From: a virus
Taxonomy: Duplodnaviria > Heunggongvirae > Uroviricota > Caudoviricetes
Strand: one strand, 5' to 3'
Virus record (IMG/VR): IMGVR_UViG_3300028364_000020
Coordinates: 41,510 to 105,509 of that record
DNA: 64,000 bases
Shown piece by piece: positions 18,415-61,234 of this stretch. Under the pieces are notes generated by a model, which ran no database searches, was not told the origin of the DNA, and worked only from the letters and a program-made list of their open reading frames with translations. The translations under genes and the position numbers were made by a program. Each line of letters starts with the position of its first letter. Position 1 is the stretch's first letter.

Positions 18415-18432
18415 AATCAGTACCTTTGCGGT

Positions 18433-23343: not shown

Positions 23344-23677
23344 TAATATAACGATTCCAGAAAAATTAAACGCTGATATTTGGGAGTTTTGTCGAGCAAA
23401 TAATATAACAAATATAGAAGCTTTTATTAACAAAATTTTACAACAAGGTTTCACTGCTGAAAAATTTGGTTCCGTACCAATGTTTAAAGATAATAACTTA
23501 GATAAAAAAATAGAAGTTAAAGAAGAAATAGTTAAACCTAACGACAAAGAAAATAAAACGTTAAATAAGACAATTAATTCCTTAGAAAAAGAATTAAAAG
23601 AAACACTTGAAAAATTAGAAAATGTTAAAATTGAATTAGTAAAAGAAAAAAATAAAAAAGATATATATGGTGAATAA
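23336..23677 (+). CDS. hypothetical protein with a charged coiled-coil C-terminus
   Basis: 113-aa ORF with a K/E-rich C-terminus. Confidence 0.35.
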   Translation: MINNITIPEKLNADIWEFCRANNITNIEAFINKILQQGFTAEKFGSVPMFKDNNLDKKIEVKEEIVKPNDKENKTLNKTINSLEKELKETLEKLENVKIELVKEKNKKDIYGE

Positions 23678-26468
23678 TTTAATTTCTCCTTCTTCTAAAA
23701 TTAAAGTGTACTGGGATGACCAACCACACAATTACAGTAAAGAAGCTAAGATAAAAATAAGAAATTCAATTGCGAATAAATATGGTGTTAATAAAAACAA
23801 CATAACTATCATTTATCGACCTATTAAGATAAATGAAAATGGTGAAGTTATTGAAATAACTGGTGCTGGTATTGACAATATCATGGACATCAACTATCAA
23901 AGGTCACTAATGTTAGAATTGGTAACTAGAGATGGTAAAACTATTGATTTTAAACGCATATTAGCATTAGATGATAAAGTTAATGGTGAATTAAATTTAG
24001 ATTTAAATTCTACAAGTCAAAAAAGTTGGTCTATTAAATGGTTAATGATTGATAACTTTTTATCTTTTGGTGATGAAAATTTTATTCAATTCAGCAAACT
24101 AAATGGTTTAACTATTGTAAATTCAATTCCAGAAAATCAAGGTGGTAAGTGTTTGCGAGAAAATACTGACATAACGATAAGATATGATAAAGATGAAATA
24201 ATAAAAAAATTAGGTTTTTTACCAGATGAATTAAACGAAGAAATAACGATAGGTGAATTAAACGCTATTTATGAAAAATATGGAGATTTAGGGTTTAAGG
24301 TAGATACACCTTATGGTTTTAAAGATATTACTTGGTGTGGTATAACAGAAGAAAATGCTGATGTATATAGATGTGAACTTGAGGATGGAAAGTATGTAGA
24401 GGGTGCTGATTACCATAGGTTAAAAAAAGAAGATGGGGATTTTGTTGTTTTAAAAGAAATAGAAATTGGAACACCGATACAAACTATTGATGGGTTAAGT
24501 AAAGTTAAATCGATAGAATTAATGGATTTTAAAGATACCCTTTATGACATTCAAGTAGCTGAGGTACATCAGTATTATAGTAATGGTATTGTTTCACATA
24601 ACACAACTTTGACAATAGATGCAATAAAGTTTTTATTACACGGTAATACAACTAAAACAGATACTAATGAGCAAATATTTAATTCGTTCAGTGGTAAAAA
24701 TGAATTTACTGTTAGGGGTATGGTTGAAATAGATAGCGATGAAGTAATTATTGAAAGAAAACTAAAACGTAATGCTAAAAAAGGTGGTGGTTGGACAATA
24801 ACTAACAAAGTTAAATATTATAAATTACTACCAGATGGTGAAGAAGAAGAATTAAACGAAGAAAATGCTATTCAGACAAATAAAAAGATAAGGGAATCTA
24901 TTGGTTCTGAAAAAGACTTTGAAATGTTAGTTTTAGCTACAGAAAAAAATTTAGAGGACCTTATAGGACTTACAACTACTGAATCTGGTAAATTGTTAAC
25001 TAGACTTATTGGTTTAGAAGTATTAGAACATAAAGAAAAAGTTGTTAGAGAAATGTACAATCTTTTTTCTAAGAAAAAAAAGTCTAATGATTTTGACGTT
25101 GTTACTTTAACCACGGACATTGAAGACACTAATCTAAAGTTAATAGAATTAGAGAAATTAAATGTTGAGTTGTCAAATAAACTAACTGACACAAAGTTAA
25201 ATATAGAAAATAGTGTGAAAAAAGTTGAAAGTCACATTAATAATAAAGAAAAGATTGATGTTACGATAACTAATATGAATCCAGAATCTTTGGAAGCCGA
25301 CATTAAAATAATTACAGAAAAGGGAAAACTTCTAAATTTTACCATCTCTAACTTAAAAGAAAACTTAACGAATGTTGGTACTATTATTTACGATGAAGAC
25401 GAACATATTGAAGTAAACAAAAAATATAATGAATTAATAACTCAAAAAGTACTTACTACTTCCGATATTACACGCATTCGAAAAGTTGTTAGTAATTTAA
25501 TTAGTAGTGGTATCTGTCAAACTTGTGAGAGAAAATTAGATGACATTGACAACACAGCACACATCAACAAACATGAAATAGAACTAAATCTGTTAATATC
25601 TAAACTATCTAAAATAGAAAAAGAAGTTTATAACACAAATTTATCTTTATTGGCGTTTAATGATATTAAAAAAAGTGTTGATGATAAAAATAAATTAGAA
25701 TTAACAATAGATAGATATAGTGTTGATTTGGGAGCATTGCGTAATGATGTTGTGTCTAAAATGAATGACTTTAAGAAGTATAACATGAATTTAGACGCTA
25801 TCAGTTTAAACAAAAAATTAGATATCGAGATAAGTTACATCAAGACCGAATTAATCGTTCTGGAACGCTCAAAAGATGATACAATGAATAGTATTCAAAG
25901 AATATCCATTGATACAAAATCAGCTGCTGAGTCAATAATCATTAAAACCGATTTGATTGAAGTAATTAAGAAAGAAGAGGAAGTAGAAAAAATATTTAAA
26001 TTTTACATTGAACTAGTTGGTAAAAAAGGTATTAGCAAATTAGTCTTACGTTCTGTTTTACCTATTATTAACTCTGAAGTTCAAAGATTATTAGAGGATA
26101 TCGTAGATTTTGAGGTCGAGATTTTCATTAATGATAAAAACGATGTTCAGTTTCTAATAGTAAAAGATGAGGTATCTAATTTATTGAAATCTGGGTCTGG
26201 TTTAGAAAAAACGATAGCTAGTCTTGCACTTAGAGCTGTTTTGGGTAAAATTTCTTCCCTTCCAATGCCAAACTTTATTACCTTTGATGAAGTATTAGGT
26301 AAAATAGCCCCAGTAAATTTAGAAAAGTTAAGATTGTTATTTGATAAAATTAAAGACATGTATGATATTGTATTTTTTATTACTCACAACGACTTGGTCA
26401 AAGATTGGACAAAAAACATTATCACTGTAATTAAAAAAGATAATATCTCTAGTATTAATATAAAATAA
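23667..26468 (+). CDS. sbcC: SbcC/Rad50-like ATPase (gp46-like) containing a mini-intein in the P-loop
   Basis: The N-terminal Walker A is interrupted (...ENQGGK|C...HN|TTL...). There is a long central coiled coil. The C-terminal part carries an ABC signature (SGSGLE), a Walker B (ITFDEVLG) and an H-loop (FFITHN). Confidence 0.8.
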   Translation: MVNNLISPSSKIKVYWDDQPHNYSKEAKIKIRNSIANKYGVNKNNITIIYRPIKINENGEVIEITGAGIDNIMDINYQRSLMLELVTRDGKTIDFKRILALDDKVNGELNLDLNSTSQKSWSIKWLMIDNFLSFGDENFIQFSKLNGLTIVNSIPENQGGKCLRENTDITIRYDKDEIIKKLGFLPDELNEEITIGELNAIYEKYGDLGFKVDTPYGFKDITWCGITEENADVYRCELEDGKYVEGADYHRLKKEDGDFVVLKEIEIGTPIQTIDGLSKVKSIELMDFKDTLYDIQVAEVHQYYSNGIVSHNTTLTIDAIKFLLHGNTTKTDTNEQIFNSFSGKNEFTVRGMVEIDSDEVIIERKLKRNAKKGGGWTITNKVKYYKLLPDGEEEELNEENAIQTNKKIRESIGSEKDFEMLVLATEKNLEDLIGLTTTESGKLLTRLIGLEVLEHKEKVVREMYNLFSKKKKSNDFDVVTLTTDIEDTNLKLIELEKLNVELSNKLTDTKLNIENSVKKVESHINNKEKIDVTITNMNPESLEADIKIITEKGKLLNFTISNLKENLTNVGTIIYDEDEHIEVNKKYNELITQKVLTTSDITRIRKVVSNLISSGICQTCERKLDDIDNTAHINKHEIELNLLISKLSKIEKEVYNTNLSLLAFNDIKKSVDDKNKLELTIDRYSVDLGALRNDVVSKMNDFKKYNMNLDAISLNKKLDIEISYIKTELIVLERSKDDTMNSIQRISIDTKSAAESIIIKTDLIEVIKKEEEVEKIFKFYIELVGKKGISKLVLRSVLPIINSEVQRLLEDIVDFEVEIFINDKNDVQFLIVKDEVSNLLKSGSGLEKTIASLALRAVLGKISSLPMPNFITFDEVLGKIAPVNLEKLRLLFDKIKDMYDIVFFITHNDLVKDWTKNIITVIKKDNISSINIK
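24150..24602 (+). mobile_element. mini-intein (151 aa) inserted after the Walker A lysine of SbcC
   Basis: It starts with Cys (CLRENTDITI, block A). It ends with block G (NGIVSHN) and is followed by Thr as the +1 residue. The splice product would restore a GK-TT(L) P-loop. There is no homing-endonuclease domain because the element is too short. Confidence 0.7.
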
Positions 26469-27046: not shown

Positions 27047-27874
27047 ATGAATAAGAGATTTTTGAATTTTGATATTGAGGACAGTATATCAAAATATTTT
27101 AAAGAAGTTAAAAAAACAAATATTTTAACACAAGAAAAAGAAATTGAGTTGGCTATTAGAATTAGAAATGGTGATAATAAAGCAGTAGATGAATTAGTTA
27201 GTTCTAATTTGAAATTTGTTATATCTGTCGCAAAAGACTATCAAAATCAAGGTTTGGACCTACAAGATTTAATCAACGAGGGAAATTATGGTTTAATAAA
27301 AGCAGCACATAGATTTGACCACGATAAGGGTTTTAGATTTATTTCGTATGCTGTTTGGTGGGTTAAACAATCAATAATTAAAAGTTTAAACGACAATGCT
27401 AGAGTTGTTAGATTACCAACAAATGTTATAAATAAAATAAACAAATTAAATAAAGAAATATCTAAATTTGAGAATACGAACGAGAGAGAACCAATTTACC
27501 AAGAAATGCTGAGTGATGGGACCCTAATGGATAAAATGGTGTTCTTCCCAAAAGCAAGTTCTCTAAACCAAGTAATAAACGAAGATGGTGATGAGTTAAT
27601 TGAACTTATTCAAATAGAAGACGAAGAAGATGATTTAGAAATTAAAGATGATGTAAGAAACGAATTAAAAAAAACGTTGCTTATCTTAGATGAAAGAGAA
27701 AGAATTATAATTCAATCTTATTTTGGTATCAATTTAAATGAAGAAGAAATGACATTAGAAAAAATAGGTGAAACATACGATTTAACTAAAGAACGAATTC
27801 GTCAAATAAAAGAAAAAGCGATTAGGAAATTAAGATTTAACTCAAGTAGTTTACAACTATTAATTAAAAAGTAA
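27047..27874 (+). CDS. sigma-70 family RNA polymerase sigma factor
   Basis: Region 2 is present (DLINEGNYGLIKAAHRFDHDKGFRFISYAVWWVKQSI). Region 4 HTH is present (TLEKIGETYDLTKERIRQIKEKAIRKL). Confidence 0.85.
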   Translation: MNKRFLNFDIEDSISKYFKEVKKTNILTQEKEIELAIRIRNGDNKAVDELVSSNLKFVISVAKDYQNQGLDLQDLINEGNYGLIKAAHRFDHDKGFRFISYAVWWVKQSIIKSLNDNARVVRLPTNVINKINKLNKEISKFENTNEREPIYQEMLSDGTLMDKMVFFPKASSLNQVINEDGDELIELIQIEDEEDDLEIKDDVRNELKKTLLILDERERIIIQSYFGINLNEEEMTLEKIGETYDLTKERIRQIKEKAIRKLRFNSSSLQLLIKK

Positions 27875-43788: not shown

Positions 43789-44223
43789 ATGGCCAAGTAC
43801 GAACAACCTTTCGAGGAAACAACAGATTTATTTAGTGAACTAATAGTTAAAACTGGATTAGACCAAGTAATGACTATTACTATCATAGTAGATAATAAAC
43901 TAAAAAAAATTACCAATGTAACCAAAGCAAGTCCTCTTTTACAATATAGGGCTGGTGACGATATTGTTATCTTTTTAAATGAAAACATCTTTGAACAATT
44001 AACCGAGCTTCAAAGACACATTGTTGTTGAAGAAGCATTAGCAAATATTCATTATGATAGTGAAAAAGATAAAATTATTATCACCAAACCAGATGTTGTT
44101 ACTTATAGTGGTGTATTATCAAAATATACTTATGAAACTTGGAATATTCTAAGTGAAACAATAAAAACTCTTTACAATGTTGAAAAACAAGCTGAGGATG
44201 AATCTTCATCAATAACTAAATAG
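43789..44223 (+). CDS. hypothetical protein
   Basis: 144-aa ORF. Confidence 0.35.
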   Translation: MAKYEQPFEETTDLFSELIVKTGLDQVMTITIIVDNKLKKITNVTKASPLLQYRAGDDIVIFLNENIFEQLTELQRHIVVEEALANIHYDSEKDKIIITKPDVVTYSGVLSKYTYETWNILSETIKTLYNVEKQAEDESSSITK

Positions 44224-44639
44224 TGGATATCAATAAAATTATTGAATTAAGCCCAACTGCAATTACTTGGGCTGGTTTTGATGAAGCAATTGTTTGTTTG
44301 GCAGATAGAACAGAAAAATCACAAACCACTTTTTATACCGATGAAGGTGAATTCTTAATAGAGTTAGATGATGAAGATGAAGATGAAGATGAAGACGAAG
44401 ACATCTATGACAGATGGTCTAGGGATAAGTTTAGTGGGGTAATAGTATACGATTTAAATAAATGTCTTGAAATTTTAATTAAAGATATGGAAGTAGATAT
44501 AAATACTTTGGACCCAGATGAAACACTTGAAGACGAAACTTATCTCACGGCATTAGAATATTTAGAATTTAATGTAGTAGGGGCATACGTAGGGGAAAAA
44601 ACTCCAATATACGTAAAAACAAAAAAAACAGAAATATAA
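44223..44639 (+). CDS. hypothetical acidic protein
   Basis: 138 aa with a poly-(ED) stretch. Confidence 0.35.
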   Translation: MDINKIIELSPTAITWAGFDEAIVCLADRTEKSQTTFYTDEGEFLIELDDEDEDEDEDEDIYDRWSRDKFSGVIVYDLNKCLEILIKDMEVDINTLDPDETLEDETYLTALEYLEFNVVGAYVGEKTPIYVKTKKTEI

Positions 44640-44657: not shown

Positions 44658-45371
44658 ATGGTAGATTCAAGTATGTATAATGAATTCAAAGATTATGCTA
44701 GTAAACACATGGGTATTAGTAGTATGCAATTATATTATTGGGAACGATTACAAGATAGCCTTTACACACACACTACTGTTAGTAACAGTTTAACTCCAAT
44801 GATTTTGGAAGAAAGACAATTAAATGTTACCCAGATAGATGTTTTCTCAAGAATGATGATGGATAGAATTTTATGGTTGTGTGGTCCAGTAAATGATAGG
44901 ATGTCAACAGTTGTTCAAGCACAATTAATGTACTTAGATACAATAGACCAAACTGACATCACTTTACACATAGATAGTCCAGGAGGTAGCGTAAAATCAG
45001 GTCTTGGAATTGTAGACGTGATGGATTACGTCAGTTCTGATGTTATGACAATAAACACAGGTATGGCCGCAAGCATGGGAGCTATTCTATTAGGTGCTGG
45101 AACCAAGGGTAAAAGACTTATGTTACCAAACAGTAGAGTAATGATTCACCAAGTTTCTGCTGGTGCTCAAGGTACTATGGCTGATATTGATATTTCTATT
45201 GCGGAGGGGAGAAAATATAACACTAAACTATTCAATATGTTGAGTGACTATACTGGAAAAACAGCAAAAAAGATTATGAAAGATGCGGACCGTGATATGT
45301 GGCTTGATGCTGAAGAAGCTAAGGGTTATGGTATTATTGATTCAATAATAACAAAAAAAATAAAAAAATAA
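44658..45371 (+). CDS. clpP: ATP-dependent Clp protease proteolytic subunit
   Basis: The catalytic Ser sits in a GMAASMGA context. The His is in MIHQ. Full length and ClpP-like throughout. Confidence 0.85.
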   Translation: MVDSSMYNEFKDYASKHMGISSMQLYYWERLQDSLYTHTTVSNSLTPMILEERQLNVTQIDVFSRMMMDRILWLCGPVNDRMSTVVQAQLMYLDTIDQTDITLHIDSPGGSVKSGLGIVDVMDYVSSDVMTINTGMAASMGAILLGAGTKGKRLMLPNSRVMIHQVSAGAQGTMADIDISIAEGRKYNTKLFNMLSDYTGKTAKKIMKDADRDMWLDAEEAKGYGIIDSIITKKIKK

Positions 45372-45406
45372 TTAAACTAAAGGTACTTGTATTATTTAAA
45401 TAAATG

Positions 45407-45417
45407 TAGTACCTTTG
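45407..45417 (+). promoter_or_regulatory. Bacteroidetes-type -7 promoter element (TAnnTTTG) upstream of the tmRNA-like gene
   Basis: The motif tagtacctttg is present. The same motif recurs upstream of many genes in the window. Confidence 0.45.
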
Positions 45418-45429
45418 TTCAAGATTTAA

Positions 45430-45460
45430 AATATGTGGACGTTTATAAAATTTCCACATA
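45430..45460 (+). terminator. terminator hairpin after clpP
   Basis: The atatgtgga and tccacatat arms form a 9-bp stem. Confidence 0.5.
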
Positions 45461-45489
45461 TTTATAAATCACAAGTTCTTAGACATAAT

Positions 45490-45852
45490 GGGGTATACAT
45501 GGCATTGACTGGATATAGGACATGGATTGTAAGCACGTAGTGTTAAATTTGGAAGCACTTAAAATCTACTATTAAACAATTGAATTGACAACGTTTTCAA
45601 CGTATCAGAAAATTTCCTTAACGAGGCTACATGTAGCTTTGCGGGAGAGGTAGCAGTAGCCTAACATACAGCAAATGATAGTAGCCTATCGAACAGAATA
45701 AAAATAGTAGTAAACTACTGGTGGAAACAAATTACCACGGCAAAAAAATATTGTAGAGGTTTGTTAGAATTACAACTTAATAAAAACTAACTAAACGTGA
45801 AGAAAGCTTTTCGGCTGTAGACAAGAAGAGGGTTCGAATCCCTCATACTCCT
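45490..45852 (+). ncRNA. ssrA: tmRNA-like gene (ssrA-like)
   Basis: The 5' end GGGGTAT..GGCATTGAC resembles the tmRNA 5' consensus. The 3' end has a canonical T-arm (GAGGGTTCGAATCCCTC) followed by ATACTCC. That 3' strand pairs 7/7 with the 5' GGGGTAT, with one G-U. The length of 363 nt is right. A candidate tag frame ends GEVAVA-stop at 45662. Confidence 0.45.
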
Positions 45853-45967
45853 TACTTAGACTTTTGTATCTGTTAATAATTTATGTATAAACATACAGAA
45901 ATAAACAAGATATTAAGAGAAAAAATATACATTACCTGTATAAACCCGTGTTATTTAACAAAAAAAA

Positions 45968-45994
45968 AACTCTGTATATATTATACAGAGTTTT
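45968..45994 (+). terminator. rho-independent terminator hairpin
   Basis: The sequence aactctgtatatattatacagagtttt. Confidence 0.65.
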
Positions 45995-46121
45995 ATTTTA
46001 CTTACTAGTAGGTTTTGTAGTTAATGTACTAGGTTTTGTTTTCGGTTTTCCGCATCCACAAGCCATAATTAAATTTTGTTTAGTTAATGTTATTTTATTA
46101 TAAATAGTTAAAAAAATATAA

Positions 46122-49355: not shown

Positions 49356-50519
49356 ATGAAAAAATTTATTAAGGAAATACTAAGTGAAGGATTGGCTAAG
49401 GAAGTTAGAGTAAAATTTAACTTACCCATAAGTTCAGATATTCAACAAATTCAAAGTGTGTTCAAAAAAAATAACTTTAAACTATATATAGTTGGTGGTG
49501 CGGTCCGTGATGCGATAATGAATAAGGTACCCAAAGATTTCGATTTGACTACAGATGCTCTTCCAGACCAAGTAGAACAAATAATGACTGCTGCTGGGTT
49601 TAGAACAATACCAACTGGTAAAGCATTTGGTGTTATTAACGTTTTTACAGAGGAAAATGAGTACGAAATTGCCACATTTAGGTCAGATGGTGAATACACA
49701 GATAATAGACGACCAGATTCAGTAACATTTGGTGATGTTATTGCGGATTCTAAACGTAGAGATTTGACCATTAATGCGTTGTTCTACGACATAGAAACCA
49801 AAGAGATTATTGATTTGGTTGGTGGTATTTCAGATATTAAAAATGGTATTATTAGGACAGTTGGTAAATCAGAAGATAGGTTTGGAGAGGATAGACTCAG
49901 AATTTTGAGAATTATAAGATTTGCTGGAAGGTTTGGTAACGACATAAGTGATGAAGCTGATTTGGCTTTGAGAAAAGATTCTTCCCTTGAAGGTATTTCT
50001 GGTGAAAGAATTAGAGATGAGTTCATAAAAGGAATAAAGTCAGCTAAATCCGTAAAACAATTCTTACTTATGTTGGATAGATACAATTTGTTTGATTGGG
50101 TTTTAAAGGGGTTAACAGTAAATAAAAAATTTATAGATAATTCTGACCCAATGATTGTTATTTCAACACTCCTAATTGGTAATGACTTCAATTCATTAAG
50201 TAAAAAGCTAAATGGTTTGAAATACCCATCCGATGAAGTCAGTACGATAGTGTTTTTAAATGGGTTATTAAAACTATCAGTAAAAACTGCTTTTTCTCTT
50301 AAAAAAACACAAAAGTTTTCTAAGGTAACGAAAGAACAGATACAGAAGTTTGGTGAATTTAACAATATCAACAGTAAAATATTAAATGCGTTCCTTCAAT
50401 TTGAATTAAGTGTTTCTGGAGGTGAACTGATTACTAAAATGAGTTTAAAATCTGGACCAGAAGTTGGTATTATGGTTCAAAAAATAGAAACAGAAAATTT
50501 TACCAAATTGATGGTTTAA
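49356..50519 (+). CDS. cca: tRNA nucleotidyltransferase (CCA-adding enzyme), class II
   Basis: The head-domain motifs are present: LYIVGGAVRDAIM, DFDLTTD (DxD) and RRDLTINALFYD. Confidence 0.85.
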   Translation: MKKFIKEILSEGLAKEVRVKFNLPISSDIQQIQSVFKKNNFKLYIVGGAVRDAIMNKVPKDFDLTTDALPDQVEQIMTAAGFRTIPTGKAFGVINVFTEENEYEIATFRSDGEYTDNRRPDSVTFGDVIADSKRRDLTINALFYDIETKEIIDLVGGISDIKNGIIRTVGKSEDRFGEDRLRILRIIRFAGRFGNDISDEADLALRKDSSLEGISGERIRDEFIKGIKSAKSVKQFLLMLDRYNLFDWVLKGLTVNKKFIDNSDPMIVISTLLIGNDFNSLSKKLNGLKYPSDEVSTIVFLNGLLKLSVKTAFSLKKTQKFSKVTKEQIQKFGEFNNINSKILNAFLQFELSVSGGELITKMSLKSGPEVGIMVQKIETENFTKLMV

Positions 50520-51404: not shown

Positions 51405-51492
51405 GGAGAGCATCTGGTCGGATGAAGAGCTTGTTTTGAAAACAAGTAAGTCGGGTAATACTGGCTTGAGGGTTCGAATCCCTCGCTCTCTT
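51405..51492 (+). tRNA. tRNA-Ser (anticodon TGA), class II with a long variable arm
   Basis: The acceptor pairs GGAGAGC with GCTCTCT (G1-U72). The anticodon arm is cttgt-tttgaaa-acaag (U33, anticodon TGA, A37). The variable arm is about 20 nt. The T-arm is GAGGGTTCGAATCCCTC. Confidence 0.6.
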
Positions 51493-51528
51493 CAATAAAA
51501 TCATTAATATATTTTATTAAATTAATAT

Positions 51529-51598
51529 ACATCGCTGGTGAAATGTTATCATTTTAATGGCCAAAATTAAAGTTCTGAGTTCGATTCTTGGTTGATGT
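51529..51598 (+). tRNA. tRNA-like sequence (irregular, possible pseudo-tRNA)
   Basis: The T-loop is TTCGATT. The acceptor-like pairing is acatcgc with ttgatgt (6/7). A candidate anticodon loop ggccaaa lacks U33. Confidence 0.25.
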
Positions 51599-51696
51599 GC
51601 AAAAAGATTAAAAAGTTTTTAAATGGTTGAAATTACCATACTTGATACGGTAAAGTCCGATAACTTAGTTAATCTATATATGGTGATTGTAGTCCG

Positions 51697-51770
51697 TAAT
51701 GGTAGCGGGGTTGGTTGTGAGCCAATTGTCAGGAATGACCTTGCGGGTTCGAGTCCCGTTTTTCACCAAC
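51697..51770 (+). tRNA. tRNA-like sequence with a long variable arm (anticodon loop ttgtgag, possibly GTG), irregular acceptor
   Basis: The T-arm is GCGGGTTCGAGTCCCGT. The D-loop cgtaatggtag is Leu/Tyr-like. A candidate anticodon stem-loop is gttgg-ttgtgag-ccaat. The acceptor pairing has two U-U mismatches. Confidence 0.3.
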
Positions 51771-51804
51771 TTTCGATGTTAACTCACCCCCACTTGGTGA
51801 AAGT

Positions 51805-51859
51805 TGGAAACAGATAATGCTGGCTAAGTAGTTAATAAACGTTCATTGATGTATTGGTT
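51805..51859 (+). repeat. conserved ~55-nt post-tRNA element, copy 1 (tggaaacag...gctggcta...ttaataaa...ttcattgat..attggtt)
   Basis: It is near-identical to 52314..52371. It is preceded by an extended hairpin at 51763-51803. Confidence 0.6.
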
Positions 51860-51957
51860 ATAATATTTAAATACTTTTGAGATGTAGATGGTTTAAAATA
51901 ATTTTGGTTTGATGTCTTAATTACTATAAAGAAATACACGATGAAGAGAATAATGGG

Positions 51958-52037
51958 TAGTACGCAGACCATCCTGATAAGATGGATAACTTGTATCGGT
52001 GTTGAAAAAGATGGGTTCGACTCCCTCCTACCCAACA
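51958..52037 (+). tRNA. tRNA-like sequence (candidate anticodon GAT, irregular D and T arms)
   Basis: The acceptor pairs TGGGTAG with CTACCCA perfectly. A clean anticodon arm ccatc-ctgataa-gatgg would give GAT. The other arms are non-canonical. Confidence 0.3.
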
Positions 52038-52098
52038 AAGCATGATGGTTTTGTATTTTGGGTTCGAGGGCCAATATACCTACTAAATTAAAATAAAT

Positions 52099-52171
52099 AC
52101 GGGATAGCATAATGGTATGCACCAAGACTCCAAATCTTCGGAAGGATAGAGTTCGTTTCTCTAATCTCGTG
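52099..52171 (+). tRNA. tRNA-Trp (anticodon CCA)
   Basis: The acceptor pairs ACGGGAT with ATCTCGT (one G-U). The D-arm is cata-atgg-tatg. The anticodon loop is ctccaaa (U33, CCA, A37). The T-arm is tagag-ttcgttt-ctcta. Confidence 0.5.
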
Positions 52172-52205
52172 CTAATAAATTGAAACAACAATTTAAATAA
52201 ATAAT

Positions 52206-52276
52206 TCTTCTATGGTGAAATGGTATCACGTTTGATTGTTAATCAATTATTTCCAGTTCGAGTCTGGATGGGAGAG
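52206..52276 (+). tRNA. tRNA-Asn (anticodon GTT)
   Basis: The acceptor pairs TCTTCTA with TGGGAGA (two G-U). The D-arm is gtga-aatggta-tcac. The anticodon loop is ttgttaa (U33, GTT, A37). The T-arm is tccag-ttcgagt-ctgga. Confidence 0.55.
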
Positions 52277-52313
52277 GGTCGTCAAAATTAATCTACTTCC
52301 ACGAAGTGACGAC

Positions 52314-52371
52314 TGGAAACAGGTAAAGCTGGCTAGACGATTAATAAAAATAGTTCATTGATAGATTGGTT
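52314..52371 (+). repeat. conserved ~55-nt post-tRNA element, copy 2
   Basis: It is near-identical to 51805..51859. It is preceded by a perfect hairpin gtcgtca...tgacgac at 52278-52313, immediately after tRNA-Asn. Confidence 0.6.
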
Positions 52372-52380
52372 ACATGGCGT

Positions 52381-52445
52381 AGCTTATTGGAAAAGATTCA
52401 TCACTCATAAGGATGAACAAATGTGTTCGACTCACATATACGCTA
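52381..52445 (+). tRNA. tRNA-like sequence (candidate anticodon CAT, reduced D-arm)
   Basis: The acceptor pairs agcttat with atacgct (6/7). The T-arm is atgtg-ttcgact-cacat. The anticodon loop is ctcataa (U33, CAT, A37) with an A-G closing pair. Only 65 nt. Confidence 0.3.
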
Positions 52446-52493
52446 CTTTTATTTTTTTTTTATGTTTAATACATTTATAAATAAAATAAACTT

Positions 52494-52566
52494 GGGGATA
52501 TAGTTTAAATGAATAAAATTCTGGTCTACGGAATCAGTGATTTGGGTTTGAATCCCAATAACCCTA
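52494..52566 (+). tRNA. tRNA-like sequence (anticodon ambiguous, possibly TCT)
   Basis: The T-arm is ttggg-tttgaat-cccaa. The acceptor pairs ggggata with taaccct, with one mismatch. The anticodon stem cannot be assigned cleanly. Confidence 0.3.
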
Positions 52567-52572
52567 CAAATT

Positions 52573-52645
52573 GGCTCTATAATGTAATTGGATAACATAT
52601 ATCTCTTCTAAAGATATATTCTAGGTTCGAATCCTAGTGGGGTCA
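52573..52645 (+). tRNA. tRNA-Arg (anticodon TCT)
   Basis: The acceptor pairs GGCTCTA with TGGGGTC (three G-U). The D-arm is atgt-aattggata-acat. The anticodon arm is tatct-cttctaa-agata (U33, TCT, A37). The T-arm is CTAGGTTCGAATCCTAG. Confidence 0.6.
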
Positions 52646-52709
52646 CAAAATAAAAAAAAATATTTATTAAAATTAATCACTAAATACTTTTTTTTATGAA
52701 AGATTACTT

Positions 52710-52718
52710 GTACCTTTG
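52710..52718 (+). promoter_or_regulatory. Bacteroidetes-type -7 promoter motif GTACCTTTG
   Basis: The consensus TAnnTTTG. It sits upstream of the tRNA-Ser(GCT) region. Confidence 0.4.
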
Positions 52719-52816
52719 TACAAGCAAAAAAAGAAAGCCTAATATCTTAGTTGCTCAGAGCATCTAATAGGTAGAAAAGTTTTTAGTCATTGAAATATTA
52801 GTTTATAATAAAACAT

Positions 52817-52898
52817 AGTGAGGTGCTAGAATGGTAATAGAAAATTCTGCTAAAGTTTGGTCGGAAACGGCTTATGGGTTCGAATCCCATTCTCACTA
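52817..52898 (+). tRNA. tRNA-Ser (anticodon GCT), class II
   Basis: The acceptor pairs AGTGAGG with TCTCACT (one G-U). The anticodon arm is aaatt-ctgctaa-agttt (U33, GCT, A37). The long variable arm is gtcg-gaaa-cggc. The T-arm is ATGGGTTCGAATCCCAT. Confidence 0.6.
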
Positions 52899-52976
52899 CT
52901 AAGGTAGATTTAAATAAAACGTTAAAATAAATAAAAAAATCATTTTTTTTTTTATTGATTATCAAAAAAAAAGTAA

Positions 52977-55990: not shown

Positions 55991-55999
55991 TTACCTTTG
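55991..55999 (+). promoter_or_regulatory. Bacteroidetes-type -7 promoter motif TTACCTTTG upstream of the kinase-CPDase gene
   Basis: The motif lies 8 nt upstream of the ATG at 56007. Confidence 0.4.
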
Positions 56000-56006
56000 T
56001 TTCATT

Positions 56007-56924
56007 ATGAAAGAAATAAACAAATTAGGTAAATTAGTTACTAGACCAAATCAAGAATTAATTATAATTCGTGGCATACCAGGAGCTGGTAAATCAACAA
56101 AAGCTAAAGAGCTAGTCGGCTCAAACGGTAAAATTCACTCAACAGATTCAATTATTGAAGCCACTGGAGATTACAGAGGTTTTTTTTCATCTATGGTGGA
56201 AACAAAAGATTTTTCACCATTATCAAATGCACATTCCTTAAATGTTTTAAATGCAATTGAATCAATTAATCAAGGGTTTTCCCCAGTAATACTTGATAAT
56301 ACTAACATTAAACAAAACGAACCTAAAAAAATGGTTGAAAAAGCCTTAGGAATGGGGCTATCTGATTCTAATATAAAAATAGTTGATATTGGAACAAATG
56401 GCTTATCAGCTAATCAACTATTTGAAAGAAATACACATGGGGTTCCATTAGCAAAAATTAAAGCTATGATTGATAGTCACAAAGGTCAGGGTGTGCTTAC
56501 TTTAGATAGTATTTTATCTTCAAAAGACCTTTATAGTAATTCGGATATATTATATTCAGAAGTTGTGTTGGATGATTTATCAAAAAATAACTTATTATCA
56601 GCGGTTAAAGATTTTATTCCAGATGGGTGGGTAATTTTTGCTCATCACATGACAATTGCATATGGTAAAGATATACCTAAAAAAGAAGATATTGGTTTAG
56701 AAGTATCATTAAATGTTACTGATATTGGTTCAACTGACATGGCTTTAGCTGTTAAGGTTTATGGTTATGAGTCAACAAATGATGTCGCACACATAACTAT
56801 AGCAGTAAATCCAAATGGTGGTAGACCAGTGATGAGTAACAATATAACTGAATGGGAACAGATTAAAACCCTTAAAGTAAAAGGTACAGTAAATGAAAGT
56901 TCTATGAAAACCAATCCCAAGTAA
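56007..56924 (+). CDS. RNA end-healing enzyme: P-loop polynucleotide kinase fused to a 2H phosphoesterase (2',3'-cyclic phosphodiesterase)
   Basis: The N-terminal Walker A is IIIRGIPGAGKSTKA. The C-terminal half has two H-x-T-x motifs (AHHMTIAY and AHITIAV), which define the 2H/LigT/CPDase superfamily. Confidence 0.65.
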   Translation: MKEINKLGKLVTRPNQELIIIRGIPGAGKSTKAKELVGSNGKIHSTDSIIEATGDYRGFFSSMVETKDFSPLSNAHSLNVLNAIESINQGFSPVILDNTNIKQNEPKKMVEKALGMGLSDSNIKIVDIGTNGLSANQLFERNTHGVPLAKIKAMIDSHKGQGVLTLDSILSSKDLYSNSDILYSEVVLDDLSKNNLLSAVKDFIPDGWVIFAHHMTIAYGKDIPKKEDIGLEVSLNVTDIGSTDMALAVKVYGYESTNDVAHITIAVNPNGGRPVMSNNITEWEQIKTLKVKGTVNESSMKTNPK

Positions 56925-57252: not shown

Positions 57253-57828
57253 ATGGTACAAAGATACATTAAATTATCAGAATACGCAAGTAAAAAATCA
57301 ATTACTTACACAACAGCTTGGACACACTTTAAAAAGGGGTTAATTAAGAATGCTTTTAAAGATGAATCTGGACACGTACTTATTCCTTTAACTAATTTAA
57401 TTAACTATAATGATATTGTTATTTACTCCAGAGTTTCATCTAATGAAATGAAAGAAAACTTAATTAGACAAGAAGAAAGATTATTAGCTTACGCTAATAA
57501 AAATGATTATAATATACTTAAATCAGTTAAAGAAATTGGTTCTGGAATGAACGATAATAGACCTAAATTAATTAATTTATTAAACGATAACACATGGAAT
57601 GTCTTACTAATCGAAAATAAAGATAGACTAACTAGATTTGGTTTTAATTATATAAAAACATTGTTATTATTACAAAATAAAAAGATAATAATTGTTAACG
57701 AAAATGAAAATGATAACCATTCATTAATGGAAGATTTAATCTCTATAATATATTCATTCTCTGCGAGAATGTATGGGTTAAGAAGAAAAAAAAATAAAAA
57801 AGATATAATTAATTTTATAGAATCATAA
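57253..57828 (+). mobile_element. tnpA: IS607-family TnpA serine recombinase
   Basis: It has an N-terminal MerR-like HTH. The resolvase catalytic region (VIYSRVSSNEMKENLIRQEER) contains the nucleophile Ser. Confidence 0.7.
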
Positions 57829-58994
57829 TGATTAGAACCTCTAAACATATTATATCAAATACTAATCAAGGGAAGCTTGCTTCCCTTGACCAACTATTTA
57901 TTGATTACAAACATGATTTAGAAATATATGTTAATTATATCATAGAAGGTATATTACCCCTTAAACCTAATTTATCTAGTAAATTACTTCCTACAGAAGT
58001 AATAAAACATTCTAAATATAAAAGAGAAATATATAAGCAAGCTAGTTCTATTATAAGGAGTCAATTAGATAAAAGTAAAAAGAAAAGATATTCATCATAT
58101 AAAAAAATATATACATATATGATGAAGAATCATCCTGATTCTTTATTCTGTAAAACTAAATTTTCTGACCTATCATTAAATAATATATTAAAAACTAAAT
58201 ATTTCACTAAACCTAACCTAAATAATATTAGTATTAATCTAACAAATGAATTTTTTAACATACAAAATGGGAACCATTTTGATAACTTTGTTAATCTTAA
58301 ATTACCTTATTTTAATGAAAAGGGCACTCGTGCCCTACAAATAAATATCCCATTTAATCATCATAAACATTCGTTATCATTTAAACATAATACGTTTAAA
58401 TTAAGAAATAATATACAAATTAAGAAGGTAAACGGTAATTATTATATTGCATTAATTTGGGAAAAAGAGATTGATATTAAAACCAATGGCAAAGCCATTG
58501 GAATTGATATGGGTTATAAAAAATTAATTGTTACATCTGATAATCAGTTTATTAATGGTGATTTAAGTGATATATATTCTAAAATAAGTAGATGTAAACA
58601 AGGTAGTAATGGTTTTAAACGAAGTTTAAATCATAGAGATAATGAAATAAATAGGCTGTGTAATTTAATTAACATCGAAGATGTTAATAATATAATAATA
58701 GAAGATTTAGTATCGGTTAAAACTGGTAAAAAATATTTTACAAATAAAATACAAAGATGGTCTTACGCCAAGACCATTGATAAAATAAATAGAATATGTG
58801 AGGATAACGGTATTATGCTGGTGAAGGTTTCACCAGCATATACCTCACAAACATGTTCTAGTTGCGGTCATGTAGATAAGAAGTCTCGCCAAGGCGAGAA
58901 CTTCAAATGTACAAGTTGTGAATATGAAATAGATGCAGATTATAATGCAAGTATTAATATTTATGATAGAGGAATTTACAGTTTCTCTAACTAA
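57828..58994 (+). mobile_element. tnpB: TnpB (OrfB) RNA-guided nuclease of the IS607-type element
   Basis: The C-terminal zinc ribbon is CSSCGHVDKKSRQGENFKCTSC. The RuvC-III motif is DADYNASINI. It is translationally coupled to tnpA through an ATGA overlap. Confidence 0.8.
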
Positions 58995-61151: not shown

Positions 61152-61234
61152 TAGGGAGAAATAGCTCAGTTGAATAGAGCATCAGTTCGTTAGGGGACAG
61201 AATGTATCGAGGGTTTGAACCCCTCTTCTTCCAC
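61152..61234 (+). tRNA. tRNA-like or pseudo-tRNA
   Basis: It has a canonical D-arm TAGCTCAGTTGAATAGAGC and a T-arm GAGGGTTTGAACCCCTC. The acceptor pairing is gggagaa with ttcttcc. No anticodon stem can be formed. Confidence 0.3.

Follow-up and report, generated by a model that had tools for sequence, protein, structure and literature searches.

In a 64,000-nucleotide (nt) stretch of DNA from an uncultivated tailed phage (positions 41,510 to 105,509 of the IMG/VR record IMGVR_UViG_3300028364_000020; hereafter the window, whose numbering is used throughout), the plus-strand segment 45490-45852 is very probably a one-piece transfer-messenger RNA (tmRNA, ssrA) gene of the Bacteroidota type, carried by a large phage and belonging to a phage-specific tmRNA family. 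As a class, tmRNAs from phages have been described before; what the present gene adds is a family, a long tag and a strict placement after the protease gene clpP. The gene measures 363 nt including a discriminator U at 45852, and CCA is not encoded. It begins GGGGTAT...GGCATTGAC (45490-45509), at the coordinates given in a preliminary description of this DNA, which had been made from the letters alone and had called the stretch a tmRNA-like gene. That proposal is supported by a full-length match to the Rfam tmRNA model RF00023, by relatives scoring above the threshold of this model, and by covariation of the paired positions.

In a permissive Rfam scan run in E-value mode over 45350-46000 (651 nt searched), RF00023 aligned exactly to 45490-45852, covering model positions 1-374 of 374, with a score of 38.5 bits (E 6.7e-14). 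The curated gathering score of this model is 47 bits, and it was passed by five of five relatives tested (68.5, 67.5, 67.0, 58.0 and 48.5 bits). Because the score of the window copy itself lies below 47 bits, its membership among tmRNAs is drawn from homology to these threshold-passing relatives together with the structural tests described below. With Rfam at gathering thresholds, the window yielded tRNAs only and no tmRNA. The covariance-model check proposed in the preliminary description was thus positive for the full-length match and for the relatives, with the window copy itself remaining sub-threshold. The same description had named two ordinary tRNA genes as the alternative; no tRNA model matched the tmRNA region, either in the permissive Rfam scan or with ARAGORN, and two tRNA genes at 45490-45852 are therefore ruled out.

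Among deposited phage genomes, no close relatives of the window were found; only its clpP was distantly similar to those of Lak megaphages and 630-kb uncultured phages. Using ClpP as an anchor, we recovered 28 loci from viral contigs, with 53-70% ClpP identity. ARAGORN called a tmRNA just 3' of clpP in 11 of them, with tags such as DNDLFVSENILNEVACNFAGEVAVA and GNDFVVSENFLNEAACSFAGELAVA that are plainly homologous to the window tag DNVFNVSENFLNEATCSFAGEVAVA, and 21 of the 28 contained a homolog matching the window element over its full length by nhmmer. The anchor bias was removed by scanning viral contigs with a DNA pattern from the tag region, independently of clpP; the 96 resulting loci comprised 54 full-length homologs and 42 copies of an unrelated protein-coding gene that matched by chance and were discarded. 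In total the family counts 42 unique sequences, on uncultivated viral contigs of up to 362 kb, and ARAGORN calls a tmRNA in 17 of these and misses 25. No member was found in 50,697 deposited phage records, where only T-arm-length matches to Enterococcus phage tmRNAs appeared, and an exact 24-nt search of viral contigs with the window's own 3' end gave no match. Two other metagenome assemblies encode the same ClpP protein, and their tmRNA regions are identical to that of the window over the stretches recovered; one of them spans the whole tmRNA gene including the U discriminator. Since the sequence is identical in three assemblies, the peculiarities of the window copy are not assembly errors.

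The ends of the RNA could be parsed in 40 of the 42 unique sequences, the acceptor being broken or shifted in the other two. As MAFFT put the acceptor G-run out of register even with a leader anchor, the acceptor was scored from the true ends. In the window, the 5' strand GGGGUAU (45490-45496) pairs at all seven positions with AUACUCC (45845-45851), as the preliminary description had it, forming six Watson-Crick pairs plus G3-U70. The same seven of seven pairing, with an invariant G3-U70, was present in 40/40 parsed copies, which use 16 different stem sequences with covarying positions 4-7; the alanine identity element that the description had singled out for checking is present in the window and in all of these copies. 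The canonical T-arm that it had also noted, GAGGG-UUCGAAU-CCCUC, lies at 45828-45844 and is followed by the acceptor 3' strand and the discriminator. Its 5 bp are 100% paired in 40/40 copies, and five of five pairs covary. The discriminator is A in 35 parsed copies, U in 3 (the window, L044 and L060) and G in 2 (L042 and L119). An encoded CCA 3' end (ACCA) after the acceptor was found in no family member, so CCA must be added after transcription.

The tag frame extends from the resume codon GAC (45587-45589) to the stop codon TAA (45662-45664) and comprises the 25 codons DNVFNVSENFLNEATCSFAGEVAVA. The preliminary description had offered the last 12 residues before this stop as a possible divergent degradation tag; the end of the frame, ...ATCSFAGEVAVA, is indeed in frame and closes with ...AGEVAVA, and the frame is conserved with a coding signature, but the tag counted from GAC 45587 has 25 residues and not just 12. 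From the alignment-defined resume codon, the frame is open in 40/40 copies, with 25 codons in 35 of them and 26 in 5, and its translations amount to 29 distinct peptides. As resume codon, 31 copies have GAC, 7 have GGC and 2 have GGA; the stop codon is TAA in 39 and TGA in 1; and the C-terminus is nearly always GE(L/V/M)A(V/L)A. All insertions and deletions within the frame are multiples of three. Column entropy at codon positions 1, 2 and 3 is 0.42, 0.40 and 0.77, so that the third position varies most, and the synonymous share of codon differences is 32% in this frame versus 14% and 12% in the shifted frames. It is the only conserved frame in the region, and it has neither a start codon nor a ribosome-binding context. 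Furthermore, A(-4), at 45583 in the window, and G(+1) of the resume codon are invariant in 40/40 copies; A(-4) occupies the position that we take to be the counterpart of A86 in frame selection by Escherichia coli tmRNA.

We then evaluated a 77-pair structure on the 40-sequence alignment, comprising part of the acceptor, four helix-2 segments, pseudoknot 1 (PK1), hairpins in and after the tag, and the T-arm. In the observed alignment, 91.3% of the pair cells formed a standard pair, compared to 81.4% in shuffled alignments (0/500 reached the observed value) and 40-46% when the pairing partners were slid by 1-3 columns. Compensatory changes occurred in 54 of the 77 pairs, against 27.9 in shuffled and 21-31 in slid controls, and the covariation score was 0.315, against 0.141 and at most 0.094, respectively. 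The best-supported elements are helix 2, PK1 stem 1, hairpin A and the T-arm. The 5' strand of helix 2 (segments 2a-2d) occupies 45510-45538 and pairs with 45795-45823; in the family alignment, pairing across its four segments amounts to 92-99%, and 14 pairs covary. PK1 lies at 45539-45566, where stem 1, AGUGUU/AGCACU (45539-45544 with 45554-45559), is 99% paired with 4 covarying pairs, and a candidate stem 2 joins the loop 45545-45550 to 45562-45566. The preliminary description had made its case depend on a pseudoknot and tag-frame architecture; the conserved frame and the covarying PK1 stem 1 and helix 2 agree with it, with stem 2 of the pseudoknot being the weak part.

Hairpins also run in and around the tag frame (45591-45672). 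They are located at 45591-45603, 45613-45617 with 45644-45648, 45626-45637, and 45653-45655 with 45670-45672; the last of these covaries and holds the stop codon in its loop, and two further in-frame hairpins covary via substitutions that change the amino acid. This covariation argues that the tag is shaped by peptide and RNA constraints together. The UUUCC/GGAGA helix of the tag region is invariant and hence neither supports nor opposes the structure. Between the frame and the 3' strand of helix 2, a structured domain at 45677-45794 takes the place of PK2-PK4, with hairpin A at 45677-45690 (100% paired, 5/5 pairs covarying) and hairpin C at 45706-45719. Hairpins A, B, C and E covary among the relatives; the PK2-PK4 region consists mostly of simple hairpins, and the alignment is unreliable there. 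A candidate pseudoknot 3' of hairpin C, in which GUGG pairs with CCAC and the loop AACAAA with UUUGUU, was read from the window sequence only.

Individual members of the family show irregularities of their own. In L074:85-530 (IMGVR_UViG_3300023242_000004, minus strand), a 44-nt 5' fragment of a second tmRNA, GGGGATACCACGGTATTGACTGAATATAGTCGTAAACTGTAAGC, stands between the normal family leader and a full, more divergent gene; this second tmRNA is a different member of the family, and the arrangement resembles a scar left when one gene replaced another or when DNA was inserted into the tmRNA gene. The T-loop of L009:4833-5182 is degenerate (CGGA-CTCATTC-TCCG), two acceptor positions are unpaired in L068, and L118 is one G short in the 5' G-run; these three are possible pseudogenes or sequencing errors.

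To place the family among cellular tmRNAs, a helix-2/T-arm signature was scanned against 185,579 species genomes. It yielded at least 120 loci, and 77 of 80 were Bacteroidota by name among the matches listed. Cellular Bacteroidota tags had 9 residues in 94 of 107 ARAGORN calls among the matches listed and were of the GENNYALAA type, ending in LAA or MAA. The phage RNAs share with these chromosomal tmRNAs the tRNA-Ala-like domain with G3-U70, the T-loop GTTCGAnTC, the helix-2 3' motif CATGTAGAAAR, PK1 stem 1 and a resume codon starting with G (Gly or Asp). They differ in their tags, which are 25-26 residues long and end in (L/V)AVA, in a 3' domain made mostly of simple hairpins, and in a length of 350-375 nt compared to roughly 350-400 nt or more. 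When a profile of the phage family was compared to cellular tmRNAs, only the terminal ~70 nt aligned, with at most 45 bits versus 120-345 bits within the family. The Bacteroidota-type ends and this terminal-only alignment together argue for a separate lineage and against a recent capture from a sampled host. A host in this phylum is also pointed to by the -33/-7 promoter-like arrangement described below and by a protein at 39-1589 with an SprB repeat, a motif of Bacteroidota gliding-motility adhesins; taken alone, the SprB repeat is a small added hint to a Bacteroidota host or to surface binding. Long tags have a precedent in the Mollicutes, whose tmRNAs encode tags of ~27 residues that end in FAFA and are degraded by Lon. 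These resemble the phage tags in their length (~25-27 residues) and hydrophobic, non-LAA C-terminus, and differ in being unrelated in lineage and sequence and in that the phage tag frame runs through covarying RNA hairpins; the Mollicutes example indicates that long tags are compatible with trans-translation.

Among phages, tmRNAs have been catalogued since at least 2006 (PMC1475703), and a 2021 survey counted them in 402 of 18,146 phage genomes, i.e., 2.3% (PMC9004378), which makes the preliminary remark that they are rare roughly right. Huge phages, such as those of Al-Shayeb et al. 2020, carry a tmRNA and sometimes SmpB (PMC7162821), the marine megaphage Mar_Mega_1 carries one tmRNA (bioRxiv 10.1101/2021.07.26.453748), and Hudson et al. 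in 2014 described phage G, Bxz1-like mycobacteriophages and, in mycobacteriophage DS6A, an element reduced to the tRNA-like domain (TLD) (PMC4131195). Like the known examples, the present one is a complete gene in a lytic-type large phage genome with tRNAs and other translation-related genes; unlike them, its family has a Bacteroidota-type fold and is mostly missed by ARAGORN, the tool of those surveys. Bacillus phage G also encodes ClpP, and its tmRNA specifies a 13-residue tag, AKLNITNNELQVA, and lies far from ClpP/ClpX (PMC12484599), whereas the present tag is twice as long and the present tmRNA lies directly 3' of clpP. The gene is in one piece, unlike the two-piece tmRNAs of marine myophages such as Melnitz. 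The TLD-only fragment of DS6A is likewise a phage-borne, tmRNA-related element relying on host SmpB, but the present gene keeps a full message domain and a conserved frame (PMC4131195).

Upstream of the gene, a candidate promoter of the Bacteroidota type spans 45386-45417 on the plus strand and consists of a -33-like CTTG (45386-45389), a 20-nt spacer and a -7 box, TACCTTTG (45410-45417), ~73 nt upstream of the mature 5' end. TACCTTTG occurs 12 times in the window compared to 3.0 expected (0/100 shuffles reached 12), with 11 of the 12 on the plus strand, and the CTTG...TAnnTTTG arrangement is kept at the same upstream place in most family members. The generic TAnnTTTG motif was not enriched in the window (111 observed versus 119 expected) and was dropped as a host signal. 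The Bacteroidetes-type promoter motif of the preliminary description thus holds as a specific, enriched and positionally conserved element, though not in its generic form, and its promoter function is predicted from these features. The 12 TACCTTTG sites span 16934-60426 and often end 4-8 nt before the start of an open reading frame (ORF), as at 18421-18428 before ATG 18433 and 55992-55999 before ATG 56007; should TACCTTTG act as a -7 promoter box, little or no leader would be left on many phage mRNAs. The phage also encodes, at 27047-27874, a group-1/2-like sigma-70 factor with regions 1.2, 2 and 4, whose best NCBIfam similarities are of the RpoD/RpoS type, and which could be connected to the enriched TACCTTTG motif or to the ATATTTATA motif described below.

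A putative precursor leader follows at 45431-45489, with the hairpin ATATGTGGA/TCCACATAT (45431-45461), a conserved ATATTTATAA (45458-45467) and GTTCTT..ATAAT (45475-45489). The hairpin covaries among relatives, the blocks ATATTTATA and GTTCTTTAAnTTAT are kept in nearly all family members, and the GTTCTT..ATAAT stretch is conserved and abuts the mature 5' G. Downstream, where the preliminary description had placed a terminator, there is a strong hairpin at 45966-45994, 114 nt 3' of the tmRNA end; with a 13-bp stem and T runs, it is predicted to act as a bidirectional intrinsic terminator, and terminator-like sites number 3 against 0.3 expected in shuffles. The region after the tmRNA has a common TTGACTTTTTTGTACCTTG...ATATTTATA arrangement in L012, L015, L061, L003, L016 and other relatives, and in the window (45853-45965) a diverged counterpart, CTTAGACTTTTGTATCTG...AATTTATGTATAAA, directly follows the tmRNA; a 41-codon ORF (45883-46008) and the terminator come after this stretch. 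The ATATTTATA block is also present in the tmRNA leader (45458-45467). The downstream arrangement may be a processing signal or a promoter of a second type, possibly specific to the phage.

The protein encoded upstream at 44658-45371 (plus strand) is a ClpP proteolytic subunit of 237 residues with an N-terminal extension of ~43 residues, and its gene ends 118 nt upstream of the tmRNA. It matched Pfam PF00574 (CLP_protease) with E 2e-60 and 204 bits (cut-off 20.2), and it aligned to solved ClpPs with 173 bits, the GMAASMG, MIHQ and DRD motifs of the Ser-His-Asp catalytic residues being aligned. The NCBIfam ClpP model NF011091 gave 259.7 bits over residues 8-234, below its strict cut-off of 361, and the model of a ClpP-related head-maturation protease gave 75.7 bits, below its cut-off of 120; PHROGs files the ClpP fold as head maturation protease. 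On these scores, the phage ClpP may be of the cellular rather than the prohead-protease type. Wherever a family locus extends far enough upstream, a clpP gene precedes the tmRNA in the same orientation, and this holds also for loci recovered independently of clpP; the distance between the two genes varies from 118 nt in the window to ~2 kb, other genes having been inserted. The syntenic block reads DnaJ - metallopeptidase - ORF138 - ClpP - tmRNA ... CCA-adding-type enzyme. ORF138 (44223-44639) was considered as a divergent SmpB or Clp adaptor and rejected; its product is strongly acidic with a DE repeat, and it has no Pfam match and belongs to a PHROG of unknown function only. No tmRNA was found within ~4-6 kb of the related clpP genes of LR745206, Lak-B4 and four more distant viral contigs.

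The CCA-adding-type tRNA nucleotidyltransferase of this block is encoded at 49356-50519 on the plus strand (Pfam PolyA_pol head domain, E 5e-38); its best NCBIfam match, at 218 bits, is to a CCA tRNA nucleotidyltransferase model whose cut-off of 290 it does not reach, and the enzyme is syntenic 3' of the tmRNA in relatives. The window's tRNA genes, seven in an array at 51405-52899 and an eighth detected by Rfam only at 61155-61233, mostly have no encoded CCA, and the enzyme could supply the CCA ends of the tmRNA and the phage tRNAs. At 56007-56924, a protein combines a P-loop kinase domain with a weak tRNA-ligase phosphodiesterase match; the CCA enzyme, the tRNAs and this kinase/phosphodiesterase-like protein suggest a module for tRNA repair and supply. 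Further downstream, at 57253-58994, the genes of a serine resolvase (57253-57828) and, after it, a TnpB/Cas12f-like protein (57828-58994) form an IS607-like pair. In a second assembly of the same phage, the gene call L128:3200-3469, ~2 kb past the tmRNA and on the opposite strand, has the same TnpB-type domain, so the transposon content may differ between assemblies or be multi-copy. A 933-residue ORF at 23667-26468, with a weak match to an intein splicing domain (E 9e-5, below the Pfam cut-off), may encode an intein-containing protein of replication or nucleotide metabolism.

By analogy with known tmRNAs, the gene would be transcribed from the host-type promoter ~70 nt upstream, and RNase P would cut the leader at the GGGG 5' end (45489/45490). 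The 3' end would be trimmed and CCA added, possibly by the phage CCA-adding enzyme encoded 3.5 kb downstream. Host alanyl-tRNA synthetase would then charge the tRNA-like domain through the G3-U70 pair present there, and the RNA would enter stalled ribosomes with SmpB, presumably that of the host because none was found in the phage DNA at hand. Translation would resume at GAC 45587, where the conserved frame begins, and append Ala plus DNVFNVSENFLNEATCSFAGEVAVA. More speculatively, the hydrophobic ...AVA end might mark the protein for an ATP-dependent protease, plausibly one in which a host unfoldase works with the phage ClpP. Overall, ribosomes would continue to be recycled during infection, and truncated proteins would be cleared.

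Several observations weigh against reading 45490-45852 as a working tmRNA gene. At 38.5 bits the window copy goes unseen in the default Rfam scan. ARAGORN calls nothing at 45490-45852, whether run on the whole window, where it finds seven tRNAs elsewhere, or on the sub-region, so the check with this program named in the preliminary description came out negative; in silico repairs (U73 to A, CCA added, helix 2a repaired, GGCATT to GGTATT) leave it silent. The single-sequence fold is not unusually stable (z = -1.5), the discriminator is U where A is usual, helix 2 has lost five of its consensus pairs, and hairpin B, present in the relatives, is missing. PK1 stem 2 is 78% paired in the family with 1 covarying pair, and it has two mismatches in the window copy. 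The conservation of the tag is owed partly to the RNA hairpins rather than to the peptide. Finally, searches of the 64-kb window and of all related loci turned up no SmpB and no ClpX; an SmpB probe scan of viral contigs was uninformative for the family, as smpB genes at the edges of E. coli prophages dominated the matches kept. Within the family, the window copy diverges most: it forms 24/29 core pairs, compared to 27-29 in 37 of 39 relatives, the exceptions being L097 (25) and L076 (23, possibly misaligned). One might then suppose that the family is real and that this copy is a decaying or non-functional gene under relaxed selection, as the fewest core pairs among confidently aligned members, the U discriminator, the lost hairpin B, the two PK1 stem 2 mismatches and an Rfam score of 38.5 bits versus 48.5-68.5 in the tested relatives would suggest. 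We consider this unlikely. The 25-codon frame and its stop, A(-4) and the resume context, G3-U70, the T-arm, and the promoter-like element and leader are all intact, and the sequence is fixed, being identical in three assemblies. The lineage has compensatory changes of its own (47-395 from U-A to A-U and 63-376 from U-A to C-G), and alternative pairs restore helix 2 to a duplex energy of -12.0 kcal/mol, mid-range for a family that spans -8 to -17. A U discriminator is also found in L044 and L060, and a G in L042 and L119, which are otherwise intact. From these sequence features, we judge the window copy to be functional but divergent.

If the gene does encode a functional tmRNA, the next matter is what its position beside clpP means, a placement that the preliminary description had found striking. 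ClpP is confirmed there, and the link as read from sequence is one of conserved synteny within one phage clade, with functional coupling of the two genes a hypothesis. Roughly an even chance attaches to the adjacency being inherited gene order only, with the tmRNA using host proteases and the phage ClpP serving another purpose, for instance virion maturation or, together with DnaJ, general proteostasis. The whole block from DnaJ to the CCA enzyme is syntenic, so the linkage is not specific to the clpP-tmRNA pair; the variable spacing with inserted genes, the distant phages that have a related clpP and no tmRNA nearby, the failure to find ClpX in the window and related loci, the PHROGs label, and the distance between tmRNA and ClpP/ClpX in phage G (PMC12484599) all agree with this explanation. 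Against it stand the adjacency in every locus with enough upstream sequence that was found independently of clpP, a ClpP scoring as cellular type (259.7 versus 75.7 bits), and a hydrophobic, Ala-rich tag end resembling ClpXP degrons, as partly known from ssrA tags in general. That the phage runs a private channel, in which a 26-residue degron (Ala + 25, ending GE(L/V)AVA) distinct from the 9-residue host tag of the GENNYALAA type is recognized by a protease that contains the neighbouring phage ClpP, seems doubtful to us. It is less probable still, and by a wide margin improbable, that the main role of the RNA is not productive tagging but that of a decoy or competitor, titrating host SmpB or blocking trans-translation in the host. 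No phage SmpB was found, so there would be competition for that of the host, non-A discriminators in several members could lower charging, and such a role has been proposed for TLD-only phage molecules, e.g., that of mycobacteriophage DS6A (PMC4131195); yet a decoy needs no message, and here the 25-26-codon frame, resume context and stop are kept in 40/40 copies with coding-type substitutions, along with the helix and probable pseudoknot architecture. The least credible alternatives, which we regard as refuted as far as sequence analysis can do so, are a host-derived attachment-site fragment, a pair of ordinary tRNA genes or a small protein gene. The 3' ends of tmRNA genes are often found as prophage attP/attL remnants (PMC9004378), and the IS607-like resolvase/TnpB pair lies 12 kb downstream. 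Nevertheless, the gene is complete, has a promoter-like element of its own and lies next to no integrase, and its likeness to cellular tmRNAs is confined to the termini (at most 45 versus 120-345 bits); the region also lacks any tRNA, and its only conserved frame lacks a start codon and a ribosome-binding context.

With ARAGORN finding 17 of 42 members and the window copy lying below the Rfam threshold, it follows that surveys undercount tmRNAs in Bacteroidota phages; a sizeable family, with at least 42 distinct sequences on contigs of up to 362 kb, has no member among the deposited phage genomes. Its tag is nearly three times as long as that of the presumed host phylum and is conserved as a peptide, yet it is threaded through covarying hairpins, which offers a compact case for message and structure constraints coexisting in one tmRNA. 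If the private channel were real, the phage rather than host quality control would decide the fate of stalled-translation products. More broadly, the block of DnaJ, peptidase, ClpP, tmRNA, CCA enzyme and tRNAs raises the possibility that large phages may bring with them a coordinated module for translation rescue and proteolysis.

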